IMG/VR virus record: IMGVR_UViG_3300028197_001952
Location: 13,602-77,601 of that record
Reading direction: 5' to 3' (one strand)
Source of the DNA: a virus
Length of the DNA stretch: 64,000 bases
Under the pieces are notes generated by a model. The model was not told the origin of the DNA. It did no database searches and was given only the letters and a program-made list of their open reading frames with translations. Shown piece by piece: positions 4,197 through 50,126 of the stretch (its first letter is position 1; each line of letters begins with the position of its first letter). The position numbers and the translations under genes were made by a program.

Positions 4197-5060
4197 TTAA
4201 TATGTTTCTATTAATTTATTATTAATATAAAATTGTAATTTTTTATTCTGTTTATCTATAATCATTTTTGCGTTACCTTCACCAAAATAATTACCCAATT
4301 TCATTTCCCATTGTTTGTTTGATAAATCATCAATAGTAATATAGTTACTGAATTTCTTATATGGGGATTGTACAAATATTGGAACTGCACTACCCAATGA
4401 TGATAAAAATAACATCCTATGAGTACCCCTATCTAACATAGAACTTGTACTATTATAACAAATTGGATATATTATTCCATTTTTTTTCATATTAACATAT
4501 TGCCTTTCATCCAAATCAATTCTCCATGCAAATTCTTCATACGTTCTAAAGAAGTTTGTTATTGAAATTTTAGTAGGATATTTTATATCAAAAAGTGCAG
4601 ATACTTCATCTATCGATTCTTTACTTAAATCTGTTTTATCAATCTCTTTTATAAATTCCCTATATATTTCTATATTTGGATTTGAATGTACGGCTTTCTG
4701 ATATTTATCAAAGAATATACTTGGAATTTCTAAATACATAAAAGAATCCCATGTTTTATTCAACCCAGTCATATCCATTGATACCACATCTGATTTAGTT
4801 ACAGTTTCCGTATTATCATCATTTCGTATCCAATGACATTTAGGAGGATATCCCCACCAAAATCCACCATCATCCTTTTTATCAATATCGGAATTAAATG
4901 GAACTGTATTAGTTCCATCATTTTCTTCTGATTCTAAATTATTTTGTATTCTAAGCTCTGTTTCATTATACAAATCAATAACCTTCTGATATGGTATAAT
5001 ATCAAATGGTTCAAGGTGTTCAAATACATCAAATAAATATTTTACTTTACTTTTCTTCAT
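4197..5060 (-). CDS. hypothetical protein with ParB/sulfiredoxin-like motif
   Basis: GIIYPI...LDRGTHRM resembles the ParB-N PI...DGxHR signature. Confidence 0.5.
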   Translation of the reverse strand: MKKSKVKYLFDVFEHLEPFDIIPYQKVIDLYNETELRIQNNLESEENDGTNTVPFNSDIDKKDDGGFWWGYPPKCHWIRNDDNTETVTKSDVVSMDMTGLNKTWDSFMYLEIPSIFFDKYQKAVHSNPNIEIYREFIKEIDKTDLSKESIDEVSALFDIKYPTKISITNFFRTYEEFAWRIDLDERQYVNMKKNGIIYPICYNSTSSMLDRGTHRMLFLSSLGSAVPIFVQSPYKKFSNYITIDDLSNKQWEMKLGNYFGEGNAKMIIDKQNKKLQFYINNKLIETY

Positions 5061-5847
5061 TTATATATCTATATAATTCGTTTGCAAATAATACATGCCC
5101 AGCTCTACTTGGATGTGCAGGTGTATTTTTATTTGATTTCCATTTATCTTTTTCAAATAATGATTTATCATTAAATTCATGTAAAAATGATGAAATATTT
5201 TTTAAATCAAATCCCCAATATTTAGTTTTATCTATTAAATCAATTTTATCATATTCTTTAGAATATACCATAGATTCAAATGCATCAACCATTATATAAT
5301 TTATATTATTATGTTCTAAATACTTTTGAAGTATCATTATAATATTTTGATTGTACATCGAATAATAATAATCATCATACATATCTGTTATGTAAAACTT
5401 TATATACCCATCCATGAAGGATTGTAGCTCAGTATTTTCTGGATGTTCTAATCCAGGTATTAAACTTTGTTTGATTTCGATTCTACTATCTGCGATACCG
5501 TTTATTCTATCTCTTTTCTTAAAATTAGAGGGAAAGAACGATGGAGTATCTCGTAACGAAGAAGTAAATGATATTAATACAAAATCATCAGAAGTTATTG
5601 ATTCGCTGAATACCTTATTAAGTATATCAATATTAGAACAACCATTTTCTCCTAAATTTAGATAATCACAATTAAACTTATCTGCTAGTAATTTTGTGAA
5701 AGAATTACTTCTTCTAAATTTATTACAAATCTTTCTAGCCTCTGTCTTATCATCTCCAACAGAATTATCAAATATTTGTTGTTCGTATTCTCTATCAGTT
5801 CCCAATCCTACTGTAAAACTATCTCCAAATGATACTATTCGTTTCAT
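5047..5847 (-). CDS. SGNH/GDSL hydrolase-fold protein
   Basis: FGDSFTVG, NLGENGCSN and a C-terminal HPSRAGH. Confidence 0.75.
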   Translation of the reverse strand: MKRIVSFGDSFTVGLGTDREYEQQIFDNSVGDDKTEARKICNKFRRSNSFTKLLADKFNCDYLNLGENGCSNIDILNKVFSESITSDDFVLISFTSSLRDTPSFFPSNFKKRDRINGIADSRIEIKQSLIPGLEHPENTELQSFMDGYIKFYITDMYDDYYYSMYNQNIIMILQKYLEHNNINYIMVDAFESMVYSKEYDKIDLIDKTKYWGFDLKNISSFLHEFNDKSLFEKDKWKSNKNTPAHPSRAGHVLFANELYRYINEEK

Positions 5848-11308: not shown

Positions 11309-12578
11309 ATTTAAATATTTTTTTAATTAAATTATCATTTACACTATAATTATTAATTAAATCAGAATTGTGTTGTAATACCTCCTTCATATCTACAATC
11401 ATATCAAACACCGTTTCAATACTCATCTTTGAAATACTATCTGATATATCCATTATCATTTTTAATCTACGCGTGCCATCAATTTCATCATCGTAAGATT
11501 CATCCCACCATTTTGAAAATGTTTTAAACCCATTTTTTTTCATTTCTTTTAAATGTTGATATGGTCCAAATTGAATTACAGGATGTCCACAAAACATTGG
11601 ATTATATGTAGAACTATGTAAATGACATGCATTTTCTTGAAATGGAAATGCACACATTACCAAACTTATAAGAGAGTTCTTATAATGTATTGGGTCAAAC
11701 GGCAAATCTGCATTAAACGTACCGACTTTATGACCAGGTACACCAACGTTTGTTTCATCCGTAACATCTATGTGAAATGGCATCTTTGATTTTAATGAGT
11801 TTATATTATCGGTTGTTGTTAAATTCTGAAAAGAGTTTCCATAATGCATATCCTGGAATTGTGGGAAACTTACTAAACTATTTTCTAATATATTGTTTTT
11901 ATTCATATGTAACATAAATACATTACGCTCCCATCTATCAGTTCTGTTAACTTTTAGGAAATGTTTTATATTATGTAAGTTATCCTTCTTGTATTTTAAT
12001 TCATCTTCTATAACTATACTATCAGGTAAACATGGTATTTTTTTTAACCTTTGAATATCGTGAACATTATACATAAATGAAAATAGGTTTATATATTTTC
12101 TAATATTATTACTACTCTTCCATTTTTCATGAGTTGATTCTGCTAATAAATTATTAGTTATAAAATATAACTTATCTGCTGGTAGATTTAAATCATCAAT
12201 TGATTTATATATTATATTTAAAAACTCAGTATACGGTGCACCTTCCATTGTATCATCGAATACTAATTTACCATTTCCATTACGAACATTATTTAATATA
12301 ATTTCTGGAATTTTATTTATATGCTTAGCCCATAAATTTGTATTATGATGAACACATACACAATATAAAAATGGCTCTTTAAAATCAAATTCCTTCACAT
12401 GTACTGCATCTGTACCTAATGTATATGGTAAACTTGAATGAGAAAATAAAGGTCTGTTTATCAAAATTCCCCTATTATCAAGTTCTTTAATTTCACTTAC
12501 ATCATCATATAGTTTTAAAATAGAATCAGAAGCATCATGCATACTACATTGATTAAATGTATCAATTAAGTGTTTCAT
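11295..12578 (-). CDS. putative GT-B (GT10-like) glycosyltransferase
   Basis: C-terminal TYNPM..GHP....G....L......GFKTFSKWWDESYD pattern recalls phage glycan-island proteins. Confidence 0.45.
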   Translation of the reverse strand: MKHLIDTFNQCSMHDASDSILKLYDDVSEIKELDNRGILINRPLFSHSSLPYTLGTDAVHVKEFDFKEPFLYCVCVHHNTNLWAKHINKIPEIILNNVRNGNGKLVFDDTMEGAPYTEFLNIIYKSIDDLNLPADKLYFITNNLLAESTHEKWKSSNNIRKYINLFSFMYNVHDIQRLKKIPCLPDSIVIEDELKYKKDNLHNIKHFLKVNRTDRWERNVFMLHMNKNNILENSLVSFPQFQDMHYGNSFQNLTTTDNINSLKSKMPFHIDVTDETNVGVPGHKVGTFNADLPFDPIHYKNSLISLVMCAFPFQENACHLHSSTYNPMFCGHPVIQFGPYQHLKEMKKNGFKTFSKWWDESYDDEIDGTRRLKMIMDISDSISKMSIETVFDMIVDMKEVLQHNSDLINNYSVNDNLIKKIFKYGNG

Positions 12579-13335
12579 CTGATTTTATTTTTTTATTAAT
12601 TACCTTTGCTATATCTATACATTGTTTAATATCTGGATGACCTGTATAATCCCTATATTGTATTTTATAATTTATAACTTTACTAAAATCTATTTTATTA
12701 TATAGAGGTAATAGTTTTTTATTATCTATTATGATGCCTTTTTCCATACTAGTTAACATTGAGTCCCACTCTACAAATCTATACTCAAACCCTTGTTCTT
12801 TTAAGTAAGATTGTAGTAAAACTATGTTAGTAAGATATTTTGTAACTAAATCTAATTCTAAATTTAAATCTAAGTCAACTAATGCTTTGTAGTAGTTAGA
12901 AAAATGCTCTAATACCAAATAGTGCTTATCTGTATCTTTAATAAAACTTTCATAGGAAACATCGAGGATTTCTTTATCATCCATACTTAAGGGAGATTTA
13001 CCCCTTCTCCATGTACTAAATTTAGGTTTAAAATATTCTCCTCTTTCTCCTATATCTCCTGGAGTTATATTAACTGTACTTCTATTAATTAAAAAACCAA
13101 ATCGTTCTTTCCAAGTCAACCCAATTACCACTAAAGTATTACTTGAGTCTAGTTCAGTAAGGTTTACTACTGAGTTCAGTATTATAGATTCCATAGACTG
13201 TCCATTTGCAGCCATGTTTATATGTTCGATATTTAATAGTTTAGAAAGGTGCACAGTCCACCTTTCTTCATCTTTAAGCTTGTCTCCTGCGGTAAAACTA
13301 CATCCATTTGTATATAAATTTTTATATTTATTCAT
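12562..13335 (-). CDS. SGNH-fold protein
   Basis: YTNGCSFTAG, NMAANGQS and a C-terminal GHP. Confidence 0.65.
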   Translation of the reverse strand: MNKYKNLYTNGCSFTAGDKLKDEERWTVHLSKLLNIEHINMAANGQSMESIILNSVVNLTELDSSNTLVVIGLTWKERFGFLINRSTVNITPGDIGERGEYFKPKFSTWRRGKSPLSMDDKEILDVSYESFIKDTDKHYLVLEHFSNYYKALVDLDLNLELDLVTKYLTNIVLLQSYLKEQGFEYRFVEWDSMLTSMEKGIIIDNKKLLPLYNKIDFSKVINYKIQYRDYTGHPDIKQCIDIAKVINKKIKSDETLN

Positions 13336-14158
13336 TTAAATGTTCTTTTAAATAAGTTGCCCACTTCTGATGTGATAGTTCGGTTGGGTGATGATTATCA
13401 AATAAATCATCTTGTTTATTTTCATTTAGTGTTGTAAGTATAAATTCTTTAAATGTTATATCTAGGAAATTGCTTTTACGTAATTTTATGTATTGTTTTT
13501 TTATTTGAAGATTTTCCGATGAGAATGGTATTCTTTTAATTGCTTTTATTAAATTAACACTATCTAATATACCATGCTTTTGTGGGTCGTTTGTTGCTTC
13601 AAATGTTTCATAAAATGCATCAAAAAATATATGTTTTATATTATGTGAATTTAAGTAAGTATGTATATTGATATTTTGAATTAAGTATCTCATAATATAC
13701 TCTTCTTGATTCCAAAAATAAGTAGTATATAATTTGGTAAATTCTTCAAATCCATTAGATGGTGTATGGATAGCAGGTGATGCTGGATATATAGTTTCCC
13801 ACCTACCTGAATCAGATTCATTCATTATATCTTTATAATAGAAATCCTTTCTTTCAGGAGAAGTCCATCCTACTATTACAAAAATTTCATCTGCATTATA
13901 TTTTTCTAATAAATTTCCAACTTGTGATATTACTCTTTTTTCTATACCATCATTAGATGAACCTGCATGTGAAGTATTACGTACCTCAATATTAGTTAGT
14001 TTTGATAACTTATCCGGCCATACTTTTGGTAATCGGTATGCATCATTATCTCTGTGGTCAATATTTGTGATACCACGTGCTTCTAATTTAGGATCTAAAA
14101 TATCACCTGCTGTCCAACTATCTCCCTCTGTTAGTATTATTTTTATATTATTAGTCAT
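13328..14158 (-). CDS. SGNH-fold protein
   Basis: EGDSWTAG, AGSSN, VGWTSPER and HHPTELSH. Start placed at MTNNIK (ORF track extends to 14200). Confidence 0.7.
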   Translation of the reverse strand: MTNNIKIILTEGDSWTAGDILDPKLEARGITNIDHRDNDAYRLPKVWPDKLSKLTNIEVRNTSHAGSSNDGIEKRVISQVGNLLEKYNADEIFVIVGWTSPERKDFYYKDIMNESDSGRWETIYPASPAIHTPSNGFEEFTKLYTTYFWNQEEYIMRYLIQNINIHTYLNSHNIKHIFFDAFYETFEATNDPQKHGILDSVNLIKAIKRIPFSSENLQIKKQYIKLRKSNFLDITFKEFILTTLNENKQDDLFDNHHPTELSHQKWATYLKEHLNE

Positions 14159-14918
14159 TCCCAACCCATTCGTTTTTGAATAAAACAGGATGATTTCCAT
14201 TACCAGACATATCCATTAACTTATAATAGGTTCGTTTTGAAAAATCACTACAAAATACATTTCTTAAACTAGTCATATATCCCTGTGCTTTTTCTAACCA
14301 AGAATTATAATCAGTAAAGAATTCATTCCAACTCAGCTCATCTGCCTCACTACGTTGAATACTTATTTTTGAAATATCTCCATGAAATATTGATCTGTGG
14401 GTTTCTGCTATTAATGTTGCACAACCTATCCATGTGTAAGAATTTGAATAATCAATTATATTATCATAGTTCATTTTTACAGAATTCTCAGAGGTAGTTT
14501 CTATTAATGTAAATTCTTTTTTATTCACGTTGTGATTTAAAACAACATCATAATATCTGTCTAGTTCATCACCATTAGTACCGAAATCCCAATTTAAATC
14601 GAACTCCATGCGTTTTTCTACATCCGTTCCTGTTTCGATATCGTGTGACCAAAAAACCCATCCTATTTTTTTGTGTACATTACCTCCTTCTCCCTTATAT
14701 CCGTTATGAAATATTCCAGCATGTTTACCATTCTTTGCAATTATTGCTCCATTGTATACACCTGTTTCTTCTATAATTTTATTTATTTTTTTTACATCTG
14801 GTTTAAATCTACAATATATAGAAAAATCTCCCTTAAGCAAATCTTGCATTTCATGGTTAACTAAATTATACTTATCTCCGTTTGTAAAGAAAAATATTTT
14901 GTTTTCATCTATTATCAT
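14151..14918 (-). CDS. stand-alone LamG/concanavalin A-like domain protein
   Basis: FSIYCRFKP, FHGDISKISI and DMSGNGNH are typical of LamG-like jelly rolls. Confidence 0.6.
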   Translation of the reverse strand: MIIDENKIFFFTNGDKYNLVNHEMQDLLKGDFSIYCRFKPDVKKINKIIEETGVYNGAIIAKNGKHAGIFHNGYKGEGGNVHKKIGWVFWSHDIETGTDVEKRMEFDLNWDFGTNGDELDRYYDVVLNHNVNKKEFTLIETTSENSVKMNYDNIIDYSNSYTWIGCATLIAETHRSIFHGDISKISIQRSEADELSWNEFFTDYNSWLEKAQGYMTSLRNVFCSDFSKRTYYKLMDMSGNGNHPVLFKNEWVGND

Positions 14919-16348
14919 AATTTTATAGTTTGTGTTTGTTCGTAAAAATCTGCCAGTTCTGGATAAACTTCTTTAAAATTAGTTTCTCTACGTCTATCAT
15001 GTTCTTTAAAAAACACTCCAAAATCACGTCTTTGTTTTAATAACTCTTCTTCATTTCTATCGGTAAGCATCCAATCATATGTTCTTTTTACTTTTTGTAT
15101 CTCAACATCAGAATATCCAACGTGTTGATGTTCAAATTTTGGAATACCGAGATAATTCATATGACTTGCTGCATCTTTTATTTTTATAGCCCATTCTTCT
15201 GGTAAAATCTTTACAGTTTGGTGTTTAGGATATCGTAAATAAGATGTATCTAAAAATACTGCAGAGTTCCAATATCTATCACTTGAAGTGTATTTCATCT
15301 TTAAACCATAAATATAATCTATTAATTCTTTATAACTTGGTACTGATAGTGCATTAAAAGTTGACATTACTGTGATACTAATTCGTTTACAACTTGAAAG
15401 AATTTTATTTACATTTTTATCAAACTGTTCCCAATTTAATCCGTTTCTAATGTACTCTGCTTGTTCTCCATACCCATCAACTGATGTGAATATAATAAAT
15501 TCTTCTACAAGTTCCTTTTCTTCAATTGCTTGAATCTTTTCTATTAATCTATCAACTAATTTATCAGGAATTCCTAAATTAGAATTTATTGCTAATCTTA
15601 ATTTTTTATTTGGGTTAGGTTCGTTTATAATATAATCTAAAACTCCCCAAGTATCTTTACTCATAAGTGGTTCTCCACCTGTGATTCTAAAAGTATGTAA
15701 ATCTCTATATAAATCTGGCCACCATCTCCAAAATGCTTCTACATAAGGATTTTCTTCTGTATGTAATATAGGAACTTTACCCTCTCCAATCAAACCTTCC
15801 AAATCATTAAATTTATCAAGTGTTGGATATGCTCCTTCTGCTTTTATTTCTTGCATCCATGCTGATGAAAACGAAGGTCCACAATATGAACATTTAAAGT
15901 TACAAGCATTTGAGAAAGCAACTTCTACATATTTTGGATTATAATCTCCTCTCCAGCCCAAATCTTTAATTTCTTGCATATGAGGAAGTGACCAAGATTC
16001 TGCTGATTTAAATACTCTATCTGAAAACTGAGGTGATGCATCTTCAACATCCCAACAATAATGACACTCTTCAGGCCTTCCACCTTCTAACATTTCTTTA
16101 CGAATACGTTTTTTAAAACGTGTGTTGTGTAGTGCAGAAGGATTTCGTTTTATCTCACTTTCATTTATCTTATGTGTTGTTGGGTGATGACAAGAATGAG
16201 TATGTCCCATTTGTAAGTGAATTGTAACTTGTGTCCATTTAGCTAAACAGAATCCACATCCTTGTGCATCAAGTTCTTTTTTGGTATTCACATATATTGG
16301 ATTGTTAGCAAAAGCTAAAGAAGGATCTAATTTTGGAGTTTCACTCAT
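14915..16348 (-). CDS. radical SAM protein with N-terminal twitch/SPASM-like cluster
   Basis: CLAKW..SCHH..ECHYCW, then CNFKCSYC and TGGEPL. Confidence 0.9.
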   Translation of the reverse strand: MSETPKLDPSLAFANNPIYVNTKKELDAQGCGFCLAKWTQVTIHLQMGHTHSCHHPTTHKINESEIKRNPSALHNTRFKKRIRKEMLEGGRPEECHYCWDVEDASPQFSDRVFKSAESWSLPHMQEIKDLGWRGDYNPKYVEVAFSNACNFKCSYCGPSFSSAWMQEIKAEGAYPTLDKFNDLEGLIGEGKVPILHTEENPYVEAFWRWWPDLYRDLHTFRITGGEPLMSKDTWGVLDYIINEPNPNKKLRLAINSNLGIPDKLVDRLIEKIQAIEEKELVEEFIIFTSVDGYGEQAEYIRNGLNWEQFDKNVNKILSSCKRISITVMSTFNALSVPSYKELIDYIYGLKMKYTSSDRYWNSAVFLDTSYLRYPKHQTVKILPEEWAIKIKDAASHMNYLGIPKFEHQHVGYSDVEIQKVKRTYDWMLTDRNEEELLKQRRDFGVFFKEHDRRRETNFKEVYPELADFYEQTQTIKL

Positions 16349-17820
16349 AATTTTACGTTTATTAATTTTGCTTTTGTTGATATTTCTTCAATATCTAATA
16401 ACTCATATTTCAATTGTTTGATACCATCTGATTTATAATCCCATGTTCCTTGTTGCATCTCGTGGATGTATCTTTTCTCGTTTCGAGCAGTAGTTTCTCC
16501 CTTTGCCCATACATCGTTTCCACTTGAATCTTTAATCATTCCTTCATCTTGATGTGGTAAACAATTCATTTTACCATCTTTACGATGAGGTATAATAGTA
16601 TGTGGAATTTTAATTTTTTCTTTATTAAACATTCCTCTTGTTATTTTACCATTTATACCATTACCACTTAAATCAATGGCCATTCTCGTTGAATTAACTT
16701 GTTCTTTGTTGTTAAAATCATAATGTAACACGAGTTTATCAGTTGAGATTTCCTTATGTAATTTTGAAATTTCATTAGAATCTAAACATCGATTCCACAT
16801 CATTACTTTAGCTATATCACCCTTAAACCATTTGTTTGGTTCTGTTCTAGCAGTTGAGGTTGTTGTTCCTAAATAATAATCATCTAATCCATATGATTTT
16901 AATCTATCTTCATATTTAAGTGGTGATTGTGTGCCATGACCATGTCTTGCATCTGATTCTTTTCCATTTAAATAGAAATGTATATTTTGTTTAGATGTAT
17001 CAACACTTAGTGTAATCCATGCCCATTGGTTTTCATATCTTTTTATCCATTGATATAAATGATTCTGAGTACTATCCCATAATTGAGCAGTATATGCTCT
17101 TGAATTATTATAACTCAATCCATAATCATATCCTGGTCTTCTTAGAATTGGATATTCACAAAATCTTCTATCTTCATCACCTATTAACCAAATTGGAACT
17201 TTTTCTTCTTGTTGATTTGCTCTTACTAAAACGGAAATTGTATGTGAACGAGATGTTAATGATTTTAATTTTTTATGTTTTGGTATTTTTACAAAACTGT
17301 TTTTACCATTAAATGATAAGTAGTTATTTAATGTACCTGAGTAATCAAGATAAGTATTATTTGCATATCCCTCTAAATTACATCTCCAAAATAAATCATC
17401 ATCTTCCATTCCCCAATCCCAATAATCATTTGAATAACCATTAGTTTTTTCTACTTGTTCTTTTGAAAATAAAACTGCTCCTCCAAAGTATTCTTCATAC
17501 TTTAGATTATAATCCATTTGAGATATTGAAGTTGCAATATGTATTGGAGTTGTTTTAGGAAACGAATAATCAGCACCTCCCCCGTCTTCAGGTATCATAT
17601 CGATATCATGCCAAACAATATAATCACACCCATCTTCAAACGCATGTTTAGCAGCAACATTTTTCATAGCTCCCCTATTAAAAAGTTTATCATCACATTG
17701 ATGACCAAAGTACATACAATACTCTATTCCTTTAGAGTCCAAATATGCTCCTACTTTTGGTACAAACTCTTTTAAATGAGCTTCTCTGTTTCTATAAGGA
17801 ACACAAACTCCTAGTTTCAT
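16345..17820 (-). CDS. GT7 (beta-1,4-galactosyltransferase family) with internal LamG domain
   Basis: VPYRNR, FNRG, HDID, YFGG and NGYSNDYWDWGMEDDD, then a LamG segment (FYLNG, FKGDI, DLSGNG), then the GT7 tail (SDGIKQLKY). Confidence 0.85.
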   Translation of the reverse strand: MKLGVCVPYRNREAHLKEFVPKVGAYLDSKGIEYCMYFGHQCDDKLFNRGAMKNVAAKHAFEDGCDYIVWHDIDMIPEDGGGADYSFPKTTPIHIATSISQMDYNLKYEEYFGGAVLFSKEQVEKTNGYSNDYWDWGMEDDDLFWRCNLEGYANNTYLDYSGTLNNYLSFNGKNSFVKIPKHKKLKSLTSRSHTISVLVRANQQEEKVPIWLIGDEDRRFCEYPILRRPGYDYGLSYNNSRAYTAQLWDSTQNHLYQWIKRYENQWAWITLSVDTSKQNIHFYLNGKESDARHGHGTQSPLKYEDRLKSYGLDDYYLGTTTSTARTEPNKWFKGDIAKVMMWNRCLDSNEISKLHKEISTDKLVLHYDFNNKEQVNSTRMAIDLSGNGINGKITRGMFNKEKIKIPHTIIPHRKDGKMNCLPHQDEGMIKDSSGNDVWAKGETTARNEKRYIHEMQQGTWDYKSDGIKQLKYELLDIEEISTKAKLINVKL

Positions 17821-18230
17821 ATTGTATCTGATATTAGCTTTTTAAACTTGGTTGTACTCCAACCATGTGAACGGTCTATCCAATGAATAAGTATACCCAA
17901 ATCTTTTCCTGTATATGGATTATCTATATAATCCTCTCCTAAAAATCTTACATCAGGATTAATTGATTTTAATAAAAAATATAACTCTTCTTCGGTATCA
18001 TAAGTTAAGAAAGTAGGATTGGTAAAAAAATATTTTAACATACTCTTACGTTCTTCTGTATTTAAGATTGGTTTTAATTTTTCAGGTCTTTGTATTTGTG
18101 GATTATCATGTAACAAAATATATTGGTTCGTACATTTATTATTCATCTCTTCAAATAGCTGGATATAACCTGGATGTATCACATCAAAGTTTCCACAAAT
18201 TACTCCTATTTCTAATTTACTTACTTCCAT
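17817..18230 (-). CDS. cytidylyltransferase (TagD/RfaE-like)
   Basis: GNFDVIHPGY, EER, LGEDY and RSHGWSTT. Confidence 0.85.
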   Translation of the reverse strand: MEVSKLEIGVICGNFDVIHPGYIQLFEEMNNKCTNQYILLHDNPQIQRPEKLKPILNTEERKSMLKYFFTNPTFLTYDTEEELYFLLKSINPDVRFLGEDYIDNPYTGKDLGILIHWIDRSHGWSTTKFKKLISDTI

Positions 18231-19660
18231 AGTTCTACTGATATAAAATAATAATTATCCATTTTTGTATCTGATAATAATTTAAATCTAACATTATCAA
18301 TTCCATCTCGTTTATAATCAGATTTTCCGTTTAATACTTTGTTATAAAAATGTAATTGATTTTTTCTTGTATCTGTCCAAGTCCATTTGTTTTCATAGAA
18401 TCCATTTTCTTTATGATATAACAATTCAAAGGTAGAATCTCTTCTCCATGGTATTGGTATTGACATAAAATCATTAACTTGTTGAATTGGTACTTTACCA
18501 CAATCCATAACTTCGGCAGTTCTACCTTTTCGGTTTCCACTTAAGTCAGGAATACTAGAATAAGTTGCAGTTTTCATATCATAACATACTTCAAGAGTAT
18601 GTGGTACAATATAATCACCAAATGCTTCTGTAAGACCCATTGATTTGTTTGTAGATATTTCCTTAATTTGAGCTTCCTCTAGTGAATGATTAAACATTGC
18701 GAAATAATCAACTGTTCCACCGAAAGGTCTTCTATTATTAAATTCCAATGAAGGAGAATCACCCAAGTACATCTTCTTTTCAGAAGCATAGTTTAATAAC
18801 TTACCAGGAAATTCAATTAAATCTATTAGTTCACCATCTTGATAAAATTTAATAACATTATCATCTTGATTTACAGTAACACATAATGTAGTTTGCTTTG
18901 GAGGAGATATGTTTGATTTTAAACTTATACACTCTTTATCGGTATTAAATACTTCAAATTTATATCTTTTATATGAATTATAAGAAAAACTTAAATCATA
19001 TCCAGGAATACAGAAAAGATTATACTCATCTGATGGGAATCCTTCGTTACATTGAATTTCATTTGGTTCAAAAGAACATAATATAGTGTAGTTTTTTAAC
19101 CTAAAAGGTTTAGGCATAGTAACCTTACTAGTATATCCATTGAGTTCTAATGCAGCTGAAGAGTGTGAATTTAATGGTAGTTCTTTTGTGTTAAAATCAG
19201 TAAAGTTTTCCTTACATCTCCAAAGTAAATCATCATCCTCATAACCCCATCCCCAATATTTGTTAGAATACCCATTTATATGATAATAATCATTTATTGG
19301 AAACATAGTAACACCACCAAAATATTCATCAAAAACAATACGTTTCTGCTTTTTGTAGTGGTTTGATGTGAAATCAGTTGCAAGATGTGTAGGTCTATCT
19401 ACTATCGAATAATCGACCTCTGAACTTGGTATCATGTCAACATCATGTAGTACTACATAGTTACACCCAAGTTCCTTAGCTTTATTCACACCTATGTTTA
19501 ATAGAGAACCTCGATTGAACGGAAGTTCATCGGATTGTTCTACTATAATCAATTCATAATCTATCTTAGATTTATTGAAATGATTTTTTATAGATGTTGT
19601 AAAGTGATTTAGGTGCGTTCTACGATTCCTATATGGTACAATGATACCAAGTTTATTCAT
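18221..19660 (-). CDS. GT7 glycosyltransferase with internal LamG domain (paralog)
   Basis: IVPYRNR, FNRG, HDVD, YFGG and YWGWGYEDDD; LamG segment (FYQDG, DLSGN); RDGIDNVRF tail. Confidence 0.85.
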   Translation of the reverse strand: MNKLGIIVPYRNRRTHLNHFTTSIKNHFNKSKIDYELIIVEQSDELPFNRGSLLNIGVNKAKELGCNYVVLHDVDMIPSSEVDYSIVDRPTHLATDFTSNHYKKQKRIVFDEYFGGVTMFPINDYYHINGYSNKYWGWGYEDDDLLWRCKENFTDFNTKELPLNSHSSAALELNGYTSKVTMPKPFRLKNYTILCSFEPNEIQCNEGFPSDEYNLFCIPGYDLSFSYNSYKRYKFEVFNTDKECISLKSNISPPKQTTLCVTVNQDDNVIKFYQDGELIDLIEFPGKLLNYASEKKMYLGDSPSLEFNNRRPFGGTVDYFAMFNHSLEEAQIKEISTNKSMGLTEAFGDYIVPHTLEVCYDMKTATYSSIPDLSGNRKGRTAEVMDCGKVPIQQVNDFMSIPIPWRRDSTFELLYHKENGFYENKWTWTDTRKNQLHFYNKVLNGKSDYKRDGIDNVRFKLLSDTKMDNYYFISVELWK

Positions 19661-19913: not shown

Positions 19914-20762
19914 CTAAATTTTAATAATTTTTCTTGCTAATCTATTCCACTTTGAGTAATCGAAATGAAAATTACTTTCCATTTTTTCTAGCATAAATTC
20001 AGGATTGTTAATATCAATTTTCCAATCGTTAATCTGAATAGCCTTGTACATCTTTTTATACTCTTCCCAAAAGGAATATTTTTCTTCAGTTTCAGAAACT
20101 TCTTTTAATCGTTCTAAAACGGTTGAATCCCACTTAAAGTGATGAACTTGTATAAATCCTTCACCTCTACCAATTGGGTATCTGAGAGGATGTTTAAATC
20201 CCTTCTTACCCCATACATGAGATTTGTTTATGATTGCATAATGTTGACCAGGTGTTACATCCACCGAACCTTTCATTATACAAACTTTATTTGGACAAGC
20301 ACCACTCATTGGATATCTAAAAAATCCAGCGAGTGGAAACTCACTCCATATATTAGTTTCTTTTGTCACCAAAGGAAACTCTCCGTTCTCTCCTATCCTA
20401 TCGAGAAAACCTCCTGTAATGAATTCCCATCCACCCTTTTCACAATCAGAAATCATTTCTCTGATTGGTTTGGGGTAAATATGGAATTCATCATCATCCG
20501 AAACCACCCACCATTCAAGGGGCTTGGTTCGTTTAATTTCGTTATATAATTGAGTTACTCTTTCCCAATTAAATTTTTCTTCTGTTACTACTTTATGTGG
20601 GGTTATTCCGAGGGATTTTATTTCATCTAAAATGCCATCGTTTTCATGTTGTCTATAAACAACAACATAAATTTCATCAACAATGTTTTTGTAGTGTTCC
20701 AACATATGTGGAAGCATTGTGATGTTATGACCAACAACTGTTACAAGATTTATCCTTTGCAT
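19914..20762 (-). CDS. GT2-like glycosyltransferase
   Basis: LEHY, WWVVSDDDEF, PGQH and HHFKW. Confidence 0.7.
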   Translation of the reverse strand: MQRINLVTVVGHNITMLPHMLEHYKNIVDEIYVVVYRQHENDGILDEIKSLGITPHKVVTEEKFNWERVTQLYNEIKRTKPLEWWVVSDDDEFHIYPKPIREMISDCEKGGWEFITGGFLDRIGENGEFPLVTKETNIWSEFPLAGFFRYPMSGACPNKVCIMKGSVDVTPGQHYAIINKSHVWGKKGFKHPLRYPIGRGEGFIQVHHFKWDSTVLERLKEVSETEEKYSFWEEYKKMYKAIQINDWKIDINNPEFMLEKMESNFHFDYSKWNRLARKIIKI

Positions 20763-21529
20763 TTCTGAATAAATGTTATTCCAGTTGATGATGGTCTATT
20801 TCTAAGTATACCATTATTAAAAAAGTTGAAAATTTCCCACTCTTTACTTTCTTTTAATTCGGTTATAAGTTTAGAAGGTCCGTTTGAATACTCTTGGTGA
20901 AAATCATCAAGAATATCATCTGAAATAATATGTTCTTTTTCATATGATGAGTCGGTATCGTGAATTGTTATTATACCATGTGGTGAAAGTAGTGTTGAAT
21001 ATAAGTCAAAATCATTCTTTACATCTTCATAAGTATGACCTGCATCAATATGTAAAAAATCTATTTTAATATCTTCTTTTACAAAAAAGTTATAGTATGC
21101 ATTTTCTGTTGTATCTAATATAAATCTACAGGGAAACTTTTTTCTAAAATATGAATTTTTATCAATCCAATCTGTAAATCCACCAACTCCATTGGATGCA
21201 TCTACTAATATAGTTGTTCCACTATCACCCCATTCCATTGATTTATTACCATCAAATATTTCTTGCTCATGTAAATCAATTCTAGCTTGGGATATAATTC
21301 TTGGAATAAATCCCCCACCACTTCCTAAACATACACAAGTTTTTGCTCTCATATATTGTATGGCAGTATATATTAACATACCATCTCCTAGATGTTTATC
21401 AGTAGCTCCATGAGTCCATCGATATTTAACAGGAGTTAATTCATCATATATCTTACCATTAACATCAATAGATTCTATTCTATTATTGGTAAAGTATTCT
21501 TTTATAAGATTGTAGTTGATTATACTCAT
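20750..21529 (-). CDS. class I SAM-dependent methyltransferase (Methyltransf_24-like)
   Basis: CLGSGGG, IDFLHIDAGHTYEDVKNDF and GIITIHD. Confidence 0.8.
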   Translation of the reverse strand: MSIINYNLIKEYFTNNRIESIDVNGKIYDELTPVKYRWTHGATDKHLGDGMLIYTAIQYMRAKTCVCLGSGGGFIPRIISQARIDLHEQEIFDGNKSMEWGDSGTTILVDASNGVGGFTDWIDKNSYFRKKFPCRFILDTTENAYYNFFVKEDIKIDFLHIDAGHTYEDVKNDFDLYSTLLSPHGIITIHDTDSSYEKEHIISDDILDDFHQEYSNGPSKLITELKESKEWEIFNFFNNGILRNRPSSTGITFIQKCKG

Positions 21530-21569: not shown

Positions 21570-22784
21570 TTACGAAATATATGAATTAATATTTTTTATC
21601 CAAGTTTCTCTATTATCAAAAGTAAGCATATACGTTTTTAGTTTAGCAAACTCGGTATATCTTTGTTGGTGTGTATCTTTACGTATCTGTTTAATACAAA
21701 TATCAAATTCATTTTTTGTTGATGCTCTATATTTGTAATCAACATCCTTTGCCCAATCTGTGTGAATGATTGGTAACTTACCATAATCTATTGCTTGAAA
21801 TATTGAATAACCAAATGGTTCTTTGAAGTATGCCCCATGGAAGATACCAAAATCCTTTCTCATGAAAGAATCAAGAATTTGTGGAGACCATTGATAAAAT
21901 TTAATATTAGGAAACGTATAACTAGTAGTATCTCTTAAATTAACAAAATCATATTTACCAGATAAAATAAATCCACCATGTCCATGCATCCAATGCATAC
22001 ATTTTCTTGTTTCAGCTCTAGAAGCAAATCCTATGTTTTTAAAATTTAGATTTTCGTTAAATGAAATATTGTGTTTAAATTCATAAAAATTAGGAACGGA
22101 ATAGGTGTAATTTGGAAAATCATCTGTAAGTTGTGTTGGGTTATTTCCTACCCAAATTCTTTTGTCAAATGATTGTACAAATTCTTTATAGAAAGCAGAA
22201 TCAACTTTTGTATTAAATTGTAATCTTTTTAATTCTGGCATATGTGTTAGAACTTCTTCCATTTCACTTGGATATGCATGAACAAATAATAATTTAAATT
22301 TGTTTTCATATTTCCAAATGTGTTCTCTTTTATGATAATGTGAATGCAAATAATATATCTCTGAACATTCTTCTAACAAATCAGTTGTTATTTCATGGTC
22401 ATCTCCATGAAAATGCCAATCCAAATCCTCTGGTAAAGATGATGGGTCAAAGTCAACAGGTCTTTTTGAATCAATTAATAATTTCCAATGTTTTCTCCAT
22501 TTAATTCCTTTCCAAATATTTTTTATAAAATGATTTGTCCAAATATCAGCACCACCTTCTATAGTATTACCACAACCAGTAGTAATCATTAGTTTCTTAC
22601 CCATTTTTTTACCATCGGTTGGATTTCTTAATCTTTCTTCAAATGGAAGTTCATTATTAATTTTTGAAACCAACACATCAGTATCTATAAATTCATCTGA
22701 GTTTATTAGGTAATTTACTAACGAAGATGTTAGTTCTTTTTTTTCTTTTTTATATAACTTCATTAATTTTGTTTTTAACCACAA
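21570..22784 (-). CDS. GT4-like glycosyltransferase
   Basis: EGGADIW and EPFGYSIFQAIDYGKLPI. Start is uncertain. Confidence 0.65.
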   Translation of the reverse strand: MWLKTKLMKLYKKEKKELTSSLVNYLINSDEFIDTDVLVSKINNELPFEERLRNPTDGKKMGKKLMITTGCGNTIEGGADIWTNHFIKNIWKGIKWRKHWKLLIDSKRPVDFDPSSLPEDLDWHFHGDDHEITTDLLEECSEIYYLHSHYHKREHIWKYENKFKLLFVHAYPSEMEEVLTHMPELKRLQFNTKVDSAFYKEFVQSFDKRIWVGNNPTQLTDDFPNYTYSVPNFYEFKHNISFNENLNFKNIGFASRAETRKCMHWMHGHGGFILSGKYDFVNLRDTTSYTFPNIKFYQWSPQILDSFMRKDFGIFHGAYFKEPFGYSIFQAIDYGKLPIIHTDWAKDVDYKYRASTKNEFDICIKQIRKDTHQQRYTEFAKLKTYMLTFDNRETWIKNINSYIS

Positions 22785-31499: not shown

Positions 31500-34400
31500 C
31501 TAATATTTTACGTTAGAGAATCCTTTTTCTTTTTTGATTGTCATCAAGTCATCTACTACATCTCTCATAGAATCTATGTGTGAGATAATCATTACGAAAT
31601 CAAATTGAGTTTTAAGGTATGTGAACAACATAAATAAAGATTGTAAGTTCTCACTATCTAAAGTACCAAATCCTTCATCTATAACGAGGAAATTAGGTCT
31701 AGGAAGGTTACATACATTTATAAGTGCAACTCGAATTGCCAATCCACTAATGAATCTTTCCATTCCACTACACATTTCTAAACTCCATCTCTGATCTGAG
31801 TATACCAAATAGGCATTAATATTCTTACCATCAATTTCTAATTGCATTCCGAAATCAACTATTTGACCTAGTATATTGTTTACTTCACCTTCAATCATTG
31901 GAAGTGCTTTTTCAATAAGTTCATACGAAACTCCATCTCTACCAAGAGCATTTAAATAATAATCAAATAATTTAGATTGAGATTCTAATTCTTTAACCTC
32001 AGTTACTCTATCTTCAATTGTTTCTTTTTGGTTTTGTAATGCTGATATTTTACCATTTAATGAAAGAATTTCTGAATTAGAGTTTTTAATCTGTTGTTTG
32101 ATTTTTTCCCAATCATGTCTAACATCTACAATCTCATCTCTGTATTCTCTATTCTTGTTAATTTGAGTTTCGTTCTTATAATATTCTTCAATAAGTTGCT
32201 CTTGTTGAGTCAATTGAGTAGAATTACGTAATTCTTCGGTTTCAATTGTTGATAACTTGTTAATAAGTCCTGATATTTCTCTATCAATTTTATCTTCTTT
32301 AGATTTTGCTTCTTGAAAATTAGCCCATTCTTTTTCATATGGAACTAAAGAATCAATTGATAATGTTACTTCAAGGTGTTGTTGGTTAAATTCATGTAAC
32401 TGAGATTCACCCTCTTTTATGTTAGAATCCACCTTTGCCTTCTGTTCTCTAATTGTTTGAGAGTTATCCATACAAACATCACATTCTTCATCATATTTGT
32501 GTGAATCTAAATGCTCTTTCCTTTCATACAAAGAATCTAATTTAATCTTAGTTTTTTCAACATCTGATTTTAAAGTCCTTTGTTTAACTCTAGATTCCTT
32601 TAATTTAGTAATTCCTTCTTCCAAATCATCCTCATCAAATTTATCTAAAATTTCATCAAGAGTAATTTGCAACTCTTCTCTATGTGTGATTCTATCTTGA
32701 ATAGAGTTTTTGGATACTTTTAAATCGTTCTGTTTACTTGAAAGTAGTTTTTTTCTTTTTTCTAATTCTTCAATAGAAACACCACTATCTGCATTTAACT
32801 TGACAATTTTTTCATTTAATTTAATTATTTCTTTGTTAAGTTTTTCCTCTTCTACTTTTGCAGAATCTTGTTGAATATCTAAGAGTTTATATTCTGATTT
32901 CTTTTCTTTTAATTCAATTGCAATATCTGCTAATTTCTGAGTGAAATCATCTTGCTTGAATTTTCTAATTAATGAAGCATTATCTCTATTTTCATCACCT
33001 GCTTGTTGATATAGTTTATCAAAAATATCTACACCAATAAATTGTGATAGAACTTCTTTTCGTTCACTTTGAGATTTATCAATAAATAATGCATTGTTTC
33101 CTTGTAAAGAAAGTGTAGTTAAAACAAAATCTTCAAACTTACCTAAATACCTTTCTATCTCTTTATTTGTATCTTTTCGTTGCTCTCCGTTTAGTGATTG
33201 AATAACCCCACCATCTTCTTTCCAAAAGTTTACATCCACTTTAACAGATGTACCTCTTCTAACATATTTTGCAACTCTTTCAATATAATAATCAACACCA
33301 TCTATCTCAAAGTTAAACTTACAATAAAACTTATCCTTTCGGTTGTTTAAGATGTTCTTAGAAACGTTTGTACGTGAAGTCTTATCATATATACAAAATG
33401 ATAATGCATCGAACAGAGAGGATTTACCAGAGGCATTAGGAGCGAAAATACCAACGATACCTTGGGCTCTATCAAATCTAATTAAATTATCTTCTCCATA
33501 TGAAAACATATTAGAAAACTGAAAATCCTTTGGTGTCCATAGAATATTCTCCGCTATCTTAGAATCATCTATTAAACCGTTCATTTGTTTGTTTATATCT
33601 GTTATCTGATTTAATTCATCATCACCTAACAAATATCTTCTTTCTAAATAATCTCGTATTAATTGGTTCTGAAATGTTTCTTCTTTAACATTACCAACTA
33701 TGTTTTTATTTAGTTTACTATTCTGTTTAAGTTGACCCATTGTATCAGTTCGTGTAACTGTTACTTCTGCAACTTTAAATATTTTCTTTAATTCTGTAAT
33801 ACGAAGTTTCATTTCTGCTCCTCCTGTATTTGTAAATCTCAATCTTAATCTTGGATTCTTTGGAAGTTTAGTACCAACCTCATCATACACCCATTGTGGT
33901 ATTTTTCCATCAACTACATCAACGGTAAGGAATCCATAATCATTGTGTATATGGTGTTCGGTAAATGTTCTTGTGGGAATATCCCAAAGTAGATAACCAT
34001 GATTCTCCAACATCTCCCCATGATTCTGCTGAACCATAGAACCTGCATATGCGATGTGTTCATATCCCTTACCAAAAGTTTGTCTTTTGTGAATATCACC
34101 CAACATAGCCATATCGAATCCATCAAACATATCTACTTGGAATGAGTTAGAAGAAACTACATATCCTATATCAGTTTGTGCTTTATTTACTGGTCCATGA
34201 AAAAGACAGATTGTATTTTCTTCTTTAATATCCTTACCCTTTGGCCAATTCTCCTTATCATCCAATATGGAATAGACAACAAAATTAAGATTGTAAATAG
34301 GATATACACCAGTATCACGAAGATAGTGGATACGAGGGTTGTTAAGATTTTGGACAATTGGTGTGAGTACATCAAGTCTGTGTGAATTATTTAAGTTACA

Positions 34401-34658
34401 ATCGTGGTTACCTGTAATTAATACAGTTTCTCTTAACTTCGCACACTCGGTGAGAAACCAAGATATTTCGTGTATAAGTTCAGGTGACATCTCAGTTTTA
34501 GCATGAGCAATATCACCAGCAATATAAATGAGGGAATCCTCAATTTTATCTTCTTTAACTTTTTTTAGGAATTTTTTGAATACCAATCTGTATTCTTTGT
34601 GCCTTTGTAGATTTCTAATGTGTAAATCCGCAAGGTGGTAAACCTTATTTATTATCAT
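31500..34658 (-). CDS. fused Mre11(SbcD/gp47)-Rad50(SbcC/gp46) nuclease-ATPase
   Basis: ADLH, AGD, GNHD and GDIH phosphoesterase motifs; Walker A PNASGKSS; CDVC zinc hook; CSGME; Walker B IDEGFGTLD; ISH. Confidence 0.92.
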   Translation of the reverse strand: MIINKVYHLADLHIRNLQRHKEYRLVFKKFLKKVKEDKIEDSLIYIAGDIAHAKTEMSPELIHEISWFLTECAKLRETVLITGNHDCNLNNSHRLDVLTPIVQNLNNPRIHYLRDTGVYPIYNLNFVVYSILDDKENWPKGKDIKEENTICLFHGPVNKAQTDIGYVVSSNSFQVDMFDGFDMAMLGDIHKRQTFGKGYEHIAYAGSMVQQNHGEMLENHGYLLWDIPTRTFTEHHIHNDYGFLTVDVVDGKIPQWVYDEVGTKLPKNPRLRLRFTNTGGAEMKLRITELKKIFKVAEVTVTRTDTMGQLKQNSKLNKNIVGNVKEETFQNQLIRDYLERRYLLGDDELNQITDINKQMNGLIDDSKIAENILWTPKDFQFSNMFSYGEDNLIRFDRAQGIVGIFAPNASGKSSLFDALSFCIYDKTSRTNVSKNILNNRKDKFYCKFNFEIDGVDYYIERVAKYVRRGTSVKVDVNFWKEDGGVIQSLNGEQRKDTNKEIERYLGKFEDFVLTTLSLQGNNALFIDKSQSERKEVLSQFIGVDIFDKLYQQAGDENRDNASLIRKFKQDDFTQKLADIAIELKEKKSEYKLLDIQQDSAKVEEEKLNKEIIKLNEKIVKLNADSGVSIEELEKRKKLLSSKQNDLKVSKNSIQDRITHREELQITLDEILDKFDEDDLEEGITKLKESRVKQRTLKSDVEKTKIKLDSLYERKEHLDSHKYDEECDVCMDNSQTIREQKAKVDSNIKEGESQLHEFNQQHLEVTLSIDSLVPYEKEWANFQEAKSKEDKIDREISGLINKLSTIETEELRNSTQLTQQEQLIEEYYKNETQINKNREYRDEIVDVRHDWEKIKQQIKNSNSEILSLNGKISALQNQKETIEDRVTEVKELESQSKLFDYYLNALGRDGVSYELIEKALPMIEGEVNNILGQIVDFGMQLEIDGKNINAYLVYSDQRWSLEMCSGMERFISGLAIRVALINVCNLPRPNFLVIDEGFGTLDSENLQSLFMLFTYLKTQFDFVMIISHIDSMRDVVDDLMTIKKEKGFSNVKY

Positions 34659-49064: not shown

Positions 49065-50126
49065 TTACAATTCTACGGTGAATGTCAAATCTTTATCTTC
49101 AAAGTATTCTATTACACCATTTCTATTTATCTTTGTTTCAATATAATAATCTCTATTAATTTCCCAATTTGTTAAATTTAATTTAAAGAAGTGTCCGTTT
49201 GCATCACAACTAACTTTAGTATAGGTATCATCAAATGGAACAACTACTTCACCAGTTACTATATCTTTAATTTGATAATAAACGGTTGATGGTAAGTATT
49301 TAACATCTTTATAAGAATATGTGTTGGCGTAAGTCTTAAGAGGATATTTTTCTCTTGCAAAAACTCTTATTGTTGGTTTACTTCCTCTCTTATATGTAGT
49401 TTTTAATCTTTTGAATGTTACATGTATATCATCTGATGTAAGTTCTGTGAGAGAACCAGTATTATACGTAGAATCATCCCAACCAATTCTTAATTTAGGT
49501 TGGTAAATAGTATTTGTTTCTTTTGAAAAGAATTTTAACTGTCCATAATCTTCAGTATCATTTTCTAATGCAGAATCATGCATTAGGATTAATCCATTAT
49601 TTGGGAATGTACCTGCCACCCACTTATTAATTGGTTCTAATATGTTCATTGCCATATCAGCTGATTGATATTCAAATGATTGAGATACTGCAGAACCAGT
49701 TAGCCACATTCCTCCCTTACCATTATGTGAACCTGAACTCTCTAATGAAGCTGAACCGATTAACCAATTAGAAGAAGATGTTCTCTTGTTCCAAGTACAA
49801 CCATCGGTTGATATTTTATCAAATCTAGTACCAATACCACCATCCCATGATTGAGAAATTGCATATCCGTATATTGTGTAATCTGTTGGAATCTCTACAG
49901 ATTCACATTCTCTAAGTACTAAATCTGCGGATGATGCCGTGATTTCTCCACTTGCGATTGAAGAAGATATTTCATTTGTATTAAATTGAATTAATGTATG
50001 TGCAATATCTTTTAAATTACCATAATATGTTTTAGATATTTCCAATATCTCATCTCTACCAGTATTTTGAGATGGTTGTTGTAAATAAATTGTTGAATCT
50101 TTTGATGCTGTTACGAAATAATACAT
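49065..50126 (-). CDS. virion structural protein
   Basis: KDSTIY..NTGRDEILEI, NNGLIL and FFSKET..IYQPKL; directly follows the gp6-like gene. Confidence 0.6.
   Translation of the reverse strand: MYYFVTASKDSTIYLQQPSQNTGRDEILEISKTYYGNLKDIAHTLIQFNTNEISSSIASGEITASSADLVLRECESVEIPTDYTIYGYAISQSWDGGIGTRFDKISTDGCTWNKRTSSSNWLIGSASLESSGSHNGKGGMWLTGSAVSQSFEYQSADMAMNILEPINKWVAGTFPNNGLILMHDSALENDTEDYGQLKFFSKETNTIYQPKLRIGWDDSTYNTGSLTELTSDDIHVTFKRLKTTYKRGSKPTIRVFAREKYPLKTYANTYSYKDVKYLPSTVYYQIKDIVTGEVVVPFDDTYTKVSCDANGHFFKLNLTNWEINRDYYIETKINRNGVIEYFEDKDLTFTVEL

Follow-up and report, generated by a model that had tools for sequence, protein, structure and literature searches.

Two viral GT7-type glycosyltransferases with a LamG-like domain predicted to be inserted within the catalytic fold

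Glycosyltransferases (GTs) of family GT7 are textbook enzymes of the animal Golgi, and their lid mechanism has been well studied. What, then, is the role of two paralogous viral genes whose products combine GT7 motifs with a LamG-like segment, and how are the two parts joined? The genes lie in a 64,000-nt window (the whole stretch of DNA that was analyzed) of IMGVR_UViG_3300028197_001952, a 77.6-kb IMG/VR viral contig from an uncultured marine phage, with an estimated completeness of ~41%. The window has a GC content of ~30% and also encodes a gp6-like baseplate wedge protein, a primase, and an SbcC-like nuclease. An earlier note on this DNA, made from the letters and their open reading frames (ORFs), had placed the LamG-like segment inside the catalytic fold of both proteins and had proposed that it serves as a lectin or docking module. 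Our analysis indicates that the GT7-LamG proteins are a known enzyme family in a new form, one that is structurally well supported by modelling.

The genes considered here are all encoded on the minus strand, and five ORFs fall in the region 14151-19660. The features of the two paralogs are as follows.

16345-17820, minus strand: GT7-LamG paralog 1 (clade A, see below), 491 aa, stop included (ORF, Pfam, structural model)
17356-17820, minus strand: GT7 N-terminal part of paralog 1, residues 1-155, which hold the PYRNR, FNR, HDID, and WDWGMEDDD motifs and the next helix (phmmer, Foldseek, residue table)
16573-17355, minus strand: predicted inserted LamG/ConA-like jelly roll and tail of paralog 1, residues ~156-416 (alignment, VIA, Pfam)
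16348-16572, minus strand: resumed GT7 C-terminal part of paralog 1, residues 417-491, comprising the His423 strand, the lid region, and the DG466 strand (alignment, VIA)
18221-19660, minus strand: GT7-LamG paralog 2 (clade B), 479 aa, stop included (ORF, Pfam)
18434-19189, minus strand: inserted LamG-like segment of paralog 2, residues ~158-409 (alignments; Laminin_G_3 at 214-333)

By sequence, fold, and motifs, both paralogs belong to CAZy family GT7 (Pfam Glyco_transf_7N plus Glyco_transf_7C). Against Pfam cut-offs of 27, 23, and 27.6 bits for Glyco_transf_7N, Glyco_transf_7C, and Laminin_G_3, respectively, paralog 1 scores 55.5 bits at residues 2-79 (with the profile match beginning at position 48), 68.1 bits at residues 94-153 (covering only profile positions 2-61 of 78), and 41.9 bits at residues 172-352; the corresponding scores of paralog 2 are 68.2, 58.8, and 36.3 bits. 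In the paralogs, the Glyco_transf_7C match ends at profile position 58-61 of 78, which is where the insert begins. The two proteins share 30% identity along their entire length (E 5e-54). When PDB sequences were searched with phmmer, residues 2-153 of paralog 1 aligned with beta4GalT1 (E 1e-26), and a weak stretch at residues 462-479 aligned with its C-terminal SDGLNSLTYQVLDV region.

Residue retention was tabulated for 170 GT7-LamG ORFs from related loci. The equivalents of D252/D254, W314, E317, D318, D320, Y289, and H347, as well as the UDP-contacting PxR/R residues, are kept in both window paralogs and in nearly all of the 170 ORFs. The DxD aspartates (D72/D74) are found in 170/170 and D140, the catalytic Asp of the WGxEDDD motif, in 165/170, with all three in both window paralogs, while the Tyr289 equivalent is present in 161/170. 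The metal-binding histidine that corresponds to bovine H347 is H423 in paralog 1 and H416 in paralog 2 (165/170 ORFs), and in both proteins it is located downstream of the insert. The family-invariant C-terminal residues are P411, R413, H423, N447, and G466. These residues and the modeled fold described below establish the two genes as encoding putative metal-dependent, inverting, beta4GalT-type (GT7, GT-A) hexosyltransferases. The mechanism is probably inverting and Mn-dependent, with a lid following the histidine, as in animal beta4GalT, and from the retained residues alone we infer transfer of Gal or GalNAc from a UDP-sugar in beta-1,4 linkage. Neither protein has a transmembrane-like (TM-like) segment or a signal-like N-terminus, and the chain has nothing ahead of the fold's first strand. 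Both should be soluble cytoplasmic enzymes.

The insert starts ~13 residues past the WGxEDDD motif, behind the helix EDDDLFWRCNLEGY. Alignment of paralog 1 with compact relatives of ~215-235 aa leaves a single clean gap of ~260 aa (residues ~156-416), after which GT7 sequence picks up again at GKMNCLPH423, and His423 and Gly466 are invariant in compact and long proteins alike. The claim of an insertion in both paralogs made in the earlier note is therefore upheld, although the segment does not sit right after the motif, as had been stated. The same note held that the GT7 C-terminal part resumes after the insert, and this is confirmed by the phmmer stretch, the invariant residues, and a structural alignment over residues 1-491.

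That alignment was made with a model of paralog 1 built with AlphaFold2 (AF2) from a 52-sequence alignment (mean predicted local distance difference test score, pLDDT, 94.5; predicted template modeling score, pTM, 0.89). Local alignments by Foldseek paired only the first ~152 residues with beta4GalT1/7, at a root-mean-square deviation (rmsd) of 1.3-1.8 Å. The gap-tolerant VIA alignment matched residues 1-491 of the model to residues 180-398 of beta4GalT1 over 214 residues (Z 27.9, rmsd 2.0 Å), and since this match spans the whole chain, it requires both flanks of the insert. Residues 163-406, compared in the same way, gave BACOVA_03559 (4dqa; Z 21.5), the PAPP-A LamG domain (Z 21.4), and pentraxins (Z 18-19) as neighbors. 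The insert, which exceeds the Pfam Laminin_G_3 cut-off, is thus in the predicted model a LamG/ConA-like beta-sandwich with a jelly-roll fold. Because the GT7 core aligns on both sides of it, the arrangement is an insertion and not a C-terminal fusion; in the modeled structure, the LamG fold is inserted inside the GT7 catalytic fold. Two simpler outcomes that had been foreseen are excluded: a simple C-terminal fusion by the alignment with compact relatives and the VIA match across both flanks, and the lack of a LamG fold by the resemblance of residues 163-406 to LamG and pentraxin jelly rolls in the predicted model. A pTM of 0.89 is high for a two-domain chain and hence points to rigid packing of the LamG domain; the model suggests a fixed, integrated interdomain arrangement rather than a loosely tethered targeting module.

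The closest structural parallels to the core are animal beta4GalT1/7 (1TVY, 1NF5, 2AE7, 4IRQ, and 3LW6), which have a similar GT-A fold (Z 25-28, rmsd ~2 Å over 205-214 residues, ~30% identity) and share with the phage paralogs the DxD and WGxEDDD motifs, the Tyr289 equivalent, and the metal-binding histidine. Unlike them, the phage enzymes are viral and predicted to be cytoplasmic, have no TM anchor, stem, or first ~50 residues of the catalytic domain (the model starts at bovine residue 180), and vary at the Met344 equivalent, which is Cys, Ser, or Leu. Moreover, they carry the ~260-aa LamG domain in place of an eight-residue loop, found by the phmmer alignment between bovine residues ~331 and 340. 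In the established numbering of beta4GalT1, this loop immediately precedes the Met344/His347 strand, which binds the metal and leads into the long, flexible lid. Known LamG/ConA-like modules (PAPP-A LamG, 4DQA, pentraxins, and CBM40) share the beta-sandwich jelly roll, with Z scores of 18-21.5 for the insert and 13-16 for a free homolog described below. Their sequence identity is, however, only 5-16%, they offer no transferable ligand site, and here the fold occurs either as an internal enzyme insert or as a 255-aa stand-alone phage protein.

The GT7-LamG architecture recurs widely. An exhaustive search of representatives returned 4,764 relatives at E <= 1e-3, many of them full-length (450-510 aa) and down to ~29% identity, along with compact proteins (~215-235 aa) whose match is divided into two stretches. 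A word-indexed search returned 1,617 relatives from marine and other metagenomes, annotated at most as "beta-1,4-galactosyltransferase 1" or "hypothetical"; the best 120 of these all show the three-domain architecture. In IMG/VR, at least 446 contigs hold relatives, of which the best 80 are all full length, on contigs of up to 276 kb, and ~30 ESM Atlas clusters with the GT7-LamG architecture are labeled 100% viral.

Among prokaryotes (185,579 species, one genome each), full-length matches were found at three loci only, all in metagenome-assembled genomes (MAGs); the other matches cover residues ~2-150 and correspond to plain GT7. Two of the three MAG loci carry the whole phage module (see below) in the same order: L003, on a 23-kb contig of a Pelagibacterales MAG, and L004, on a 248-kb contig of a Flavobacteriaceae MAG. 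These are probably phage contigs binned into MAGs, and they could still hint at SAR11 or Flavobacteriaceae hosts. The third, more distant locus (L005) has two GT7-LamG genes beside genes for a radical SAM protein, an FkbM-methyltransferase, and a carbamoyltransferase, the last of which (L005:3-1331, minus strand) directly adjoins a GT7-LamG gene. A Nol-like carbamoyltransferase is also encoded in the window, at 56971-58674 (minus strand), ~37 kb from the module, and the glycan may be O-carbamoylated.

The inserted form is, then, almost confined to viral contigs. While GT7 is indeed best characterized in eukaryotes, as had been remarked earlier, large bacterial contigs carry GT7 genes of the compact type as well. 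These compact proteins (P0240, P0245, P0267-P0269, and those of MAG loci L009 and L010) share the same core with the phage paralogs (30-38% identity), including the PYRNR-strand start and the C-terminal His and DG elements, but have no insert. A tblastn search with paralog 1 found no match in 50,697 cultured or deposited phage records, a set that may lack records close to the window; hence the nearest cultured phages as judged by the baseplate wedge (Microcystis phage Mel-JY01 and the Flavobacterium "immuto" phages, at ~38-40% identity) provide no experimental handle.

Compact prokaryotic and viral GT7 proteins are the likely ancestors of the inserted form. In a FastTree phylogeny of the core only, the deep branches lack resolution and a few compact forms are interspersed, such that the free tree shows three changes between the inserted and compact states. 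An approximately unbiased (AU) test, from which P0155, P0187, and three proteins of >600 aa were left out, did not reject a tree with all inserted forms in one clade (p 0.75); constrained in this way, the tree scored 22.9 log-likelihood units (lnL) better. These results are compatible with a single insertion event, but do not prove it. P0155 (239 aa) and P0187 (294 aa), which have 61-115 residues in the insert region, nest within clade A on the core tree; they are either fragments or chimeras of metagenomic origin or proteins from which the insert was secondarily deleted.

A tree of the 170 ORFs resolved three positional ortholog clades. Clade A, which adjoins the radical SAM gene, includes paralog 1 of the window, and clade B includes paralog 2. 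Clade C, the sister of clade A, is a third, upstream tandem copy that occurs in 22 loci and is absent from the window; in such loci (e.g., L039, L040, L044-L049, L058, and L061-L063) the ORF lies ~1.4-3 kb upstream of the clade B gene. The equivalent of Arg228 is Tyr in exactly 24 ORFs, as many as clade C contains; this hints that the clade differs in donor specificity.

The clades differ most strongly outside the N-terminal core. Mean pairwise identity in the GT7 N-terminal core is 0.78 within clade A and 0.41-0.46 between clades; the corresponding values are 0.57 and 0.18-0.24 for the insert core, and 0.63 and 0.22-0.26 for the GT7 C-terminal part. Within clade A, 66 positions of the insert are conserved at >=90%, and an aromatic-rich stretch of the insert, residues 248-268, is different in clade B. 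Conservation within clades, divergence between them, and the clade A patch would all fit a role of the insert in specificity.

Two further features of the window had been connected with the insert. The first is a gene close to the paralogs, described in the earlier note as encoding a stand-alone LamG protein.

14151-14918, minus strand: stand-alone insert homolog, 255 aa, with a predicted LamG/ConA-like fold (AF2, VIA, hhalign)

The product has no Pfam LamG match at E <= 0.01 and no PHROG or NCBIfam match, and 17 database homologs are 47-87% identical to it. Nevertheless, the description is borne out by the modeled fold and by a profile match to the insert. The AF2 model is of moderate quality (pLDDT 75.7), and VIA placed it closest to the PAPP-A LamG domain (Z 16.3), 4dqa (Z 15.3), CBM40 (Z 14.3), and pentraxins (Z ~13-14), so that the free ORF and the insert have their best structural neighbors in common. 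By hhalign, its residues 7-245 match residues 170-385 of the GT7-LamG family (probability 98%, E 1.1e-13), including the tail that follows the core, with its D(L/M)SGNG motif; BLASTP against paralog 1 was insignificant (E 0.12), and the homology is visible only by profile-profile comparison. Because the match takes in this tail, the free ORF is best read as a diverged stand-alone copy of the inserted module and not as just any LamG protein. Since it overlaps the genes on either side, there is no space for GT7 remnants. The free protein would probably bind the same class of ligand as the GT7 inserts.

The second is a LamG-like domain that had been reported in the baseplate protein, for which the evidence is weak. 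The gp6-like wedge protein (50126-52141) has no Pfam match, and a 1798-aa neighbor (40263-45659, minus strand) has only a sub-threshold Laminin_G_3 match at residues ~1156-1292 (21.6 bits, with the cut-off at 27.6; E 2.6e-4 in a scan of that region alone). The giant fiber, the wedge, and the other structural ORFs gave no Pfam LamG match above the cut-off, and hhalign of the free-LamG profile found no relation to either the 1798-aa structural protein or the wedge. We rejected the idea that the insert module is shared with the baseplate, given that the sub-threshold match was its sole support.

The remaining genes around the paralogs are the following.

21570-22784, minus strand: 404-aa conserved protein, first gene of the module (ORF coordinates; 60 related loci)
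19914-21529, minus strand: GT2-like (Glyco_tranf_2_4) and Methyltransf_24 genes, upstream (Pfam)
17817-18230, minus strand: small nucleotidyltransferase, 137 aa, between the paralogs; cytidylyltransferase-like, resembling RfaE domain II (PF01467 E 3.5e-9; phrog_7878 E 2.5e-23)
14915-16348, minus strand: twitch-domain radical SAM protein, 477 aa, directly downstream of paralog 1 (NF033640 N_Twi_rSAM E 6e-106)

Proteins of the window were compared by tblastn with ~100 related loci that have a GT7 match. Across ~80 viral loci the order is kept as unknown-404 (the 404-aa gene), Methyltransf_24, GT2-like, GT7-B, [nucleotidyltransferase], GT7-A, twitch radical SAM, [free LamG], where brackets mark optional genes: the nucleotidyltransferase lies between the paralogs in only 17 related loci, and the free LamG gene follows the radical SAM gene in 31. 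The GT2-like and Methyltransf_24 genes are present, in the same order, in 77 and 74 loci, respectively, and the unknown-404 gene in 60. Twitch radical SAM genes were found in 82/100 loci, including nearly all viral ones, directly after clade A, and no other gene is linked as tightly to the GT7-LamG gene of clade A as the radical SAM gene at 14915-16348. In the window, the unknown-404 gene overlaps the end of a giant fiber-like gene (2831 aa) by 10 nt; in 19 related loci, too, the module has fiber-like sequence upstream of it.

Downstream of the fiber-like gene, 24 consecutive products are encoded in a cluster of 22.8 kb (372-22784, minus strand). Its contents include a CMP-sugar-type cytidylyltransferase (CTP_transf_3), a UDP-sugar dehydrogenase-like protein, a radical SAM/SPASM protein, dehydrogenases, and DUF6071 proteins. 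Three ORFs of the cluster are DUF6071-like (13328-14200, 12562-13335, and 5047-5847, all minus strand), one above the cut-off and two weakly. Among the 24 products there is no TM-like segment (the maximum 19-residue Kyte-Doolittle mean is 1.26), and no flippase, polymerase, or polyprenyl-phosphate (initiating) transferase. As predicted from the encoded products, the glycan pathway is entirely soluble.

Our literature searches found no paper containing both Pfam names, nor the GT7-LamG architecture in searches on GT7 and phage; the "moraphage" paper notes four core GT families, with the GT7-LamG design not among them. New here are the finding that the free ORF is homologous to the insert, the three clades, the conserved module, and the test of a single origin. 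The picture is that of a large, almost only viral family that keeps its catalytic apparatus while a lectin-like domain is spliced in just before the lid hinge.

What might such an enzyme do? In the explanation we favor, the paralogs are hexosyltransferases with an acceptor-selecting LamG domain that act stepwise on a phage-specified glycan. The insert, packed rigidly on the catalytic core, would form a built-in acceptor-selecting wall or lectin, with each paralog recognizing a different intermediate, and the two would work in sequence with the GT2-like enzyme, the methyltransferase, and the twitch radical SAM protein to assemble the glycan in the host cytoplasm. The most likely acceptor would be a phage protein such as the giant fiber encoded directly upstream. 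The three clades, the clade-specific conservation of the insert, the Tyr at the Arg228 equivalent in 24 ORFs, the order of the module (together with the paired GT7-LamG genes of L005), and the fiber adjacency favor this explanation, which, taken whole, we consider an even call. The lectin or docking role proposed in the earlier note is plausible. A partial parallel is provided by the GT27 polypeptide GalNAc-transferases, in which a GT-A domain and a lectin-like domain that steers acceptor choice likewise share one chain. It is an analogy only, as GT27 is a different family with a C-terminal ricin-type lectin on a flexible linker, whereas the phage LamG domain is internal and predicted to be rigid, and neither paralog has a Pfam Glycos_transf_2 or Ricin_B_lectin match, so they do not belong to GT27. 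If the insert does set acceptor specificity, the family would offer a compact natural case of lectin-guided glycosyl transfer that can be tested and engineered; it would imply that glycosylation of virions or host surfaces is widespread in abundant uncultured marine phages; and it would be a clean case of domain insertion in which a donor-like free domain is still encoded next door.

Several points weigh against this explanation. The insert positions common to all clades (G230, G318, G334, and L346) are structural only, with no ligand-binding insert residue conserved across all clades. The donor sugar and the linkage are inferred from residue conservation only, and the structure is a prediction. 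Of the ~60 loci with the unknown-404 gene that opens the module, only 19 showed the fiber adjacency. Finally, even without membrane proteins, host lipid-linked glycans could still be the acceptors, as many GTs of that kind are peripheral.

A bolder version of the favored explanation draws on alpha-lactalbumin, which retunes beta4GalT1. By analogy, a LamG domain beside the lid could act as an intramolecular specifier that reads a fiber repeat or the previous sugar, with the two or three paralogs placing a defined glycan on the phage's own giant fiber as part of a fully virus-encoded soluble system. If true, bacterial viruses would here provide the first virion-glycosylating enzymes based on GT7, and a lectin would be coupled in a new way to the active site of a GT-A enzyme; in this specific form, we regard the proposal as quite doubtful.

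Two alternatives to stepwise assembly of a phage-specified glycan are serious rivals. One is that in the course of infection the enzymes remodel a glycan of the host envelope (lipopolysaccharide, capsule, or S-layer glycan), for instance as a barrier to superinfection, with the LamG domain binding a lipid-linked or nascent host glycan. The genes do lie within a 22-kb cluster of sugar-nucleotide and glycan-tailoring genes, the carbohydrate-binding modules 4dqa and CBM40 are among the structural neighbors of the insert and the free ORF, and serotype-converting phage GTs are well known (and cited in PMC12619734). Yet the 24 cluster products offer none of the flippase, polymerase, polyprenyl-phosphate transferase, or TM proteins noted above, the phage seems to be a large, lytic one, and its module is co-directional with the fiber gene and overlaps it. 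We judge host-envelope remodeling to be unlikely, but well worth keeping in view.

The other serious rival is that the insert is mainly a protein-protein scaffold that binds no sugar, and instead holds together A-B(-C) hetero-oligomers, pairs with the free LamG protein, or docks to a part of the virion. This would account for the two to three paralogs always found in tandem, the free insert homolog encoded nearby in 31 loci, and the paucity of insert residues conserved across all clades; in addition, protein contacts and oligomers are often formed through LamG and pentraxin domains, and pentraxins are among the structural neighbors. However, a free LamG gene present in only 31 of ~100 loci cannot encode an obligate partner, and clade-specific conservation is equally consistent with ligand specificity. 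A pure scaffold role therefore seems to us rather unlikely.

Glycosylation of phage DNA by the GT7-LamG enzymes, as a form of base hypermodification, is very improbable: DNA modification is common among phage GTs (PMC13326640 and papers cited in PMC12619734), but no GT7-type or LamG-bearing enzyme appears in the enzyme tables of the DNA-glycosylation paper checked, general scans of the cluster revealed no hydroxymethylase or thymidylate synthase-like gene, and the gene context is one of sugar-nucleotide synthesis and structural genes. Least of all do we credit an artefact, be it a LamG domain simply fused to the C-terminus, an ORF joined wrongly, or motifs matched by chance. Although Glyco_transf_7C covers only positions 2-61 of 78 and the C-terminal part is faint in phmmer, the architecture recurs in over 1,600 database proteins and in at least 446 viral contigs, and an artefact is refuted by the alignment of the C-terminal part, invariant His included, with compact GT7s and by a VIA structural alignment that depends on both flanks.

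One further observation concerns the SbcC-like nuclease of the window. The 1052-aa ORF at 31500-34658 (minus strand) has an SbcC-like phrog_77 match over residues 285-1052 and an extra N-terminal region, together with an "exonuclease" PHROG match at residues 405-476, and may be a fused nuclease-ATPase.

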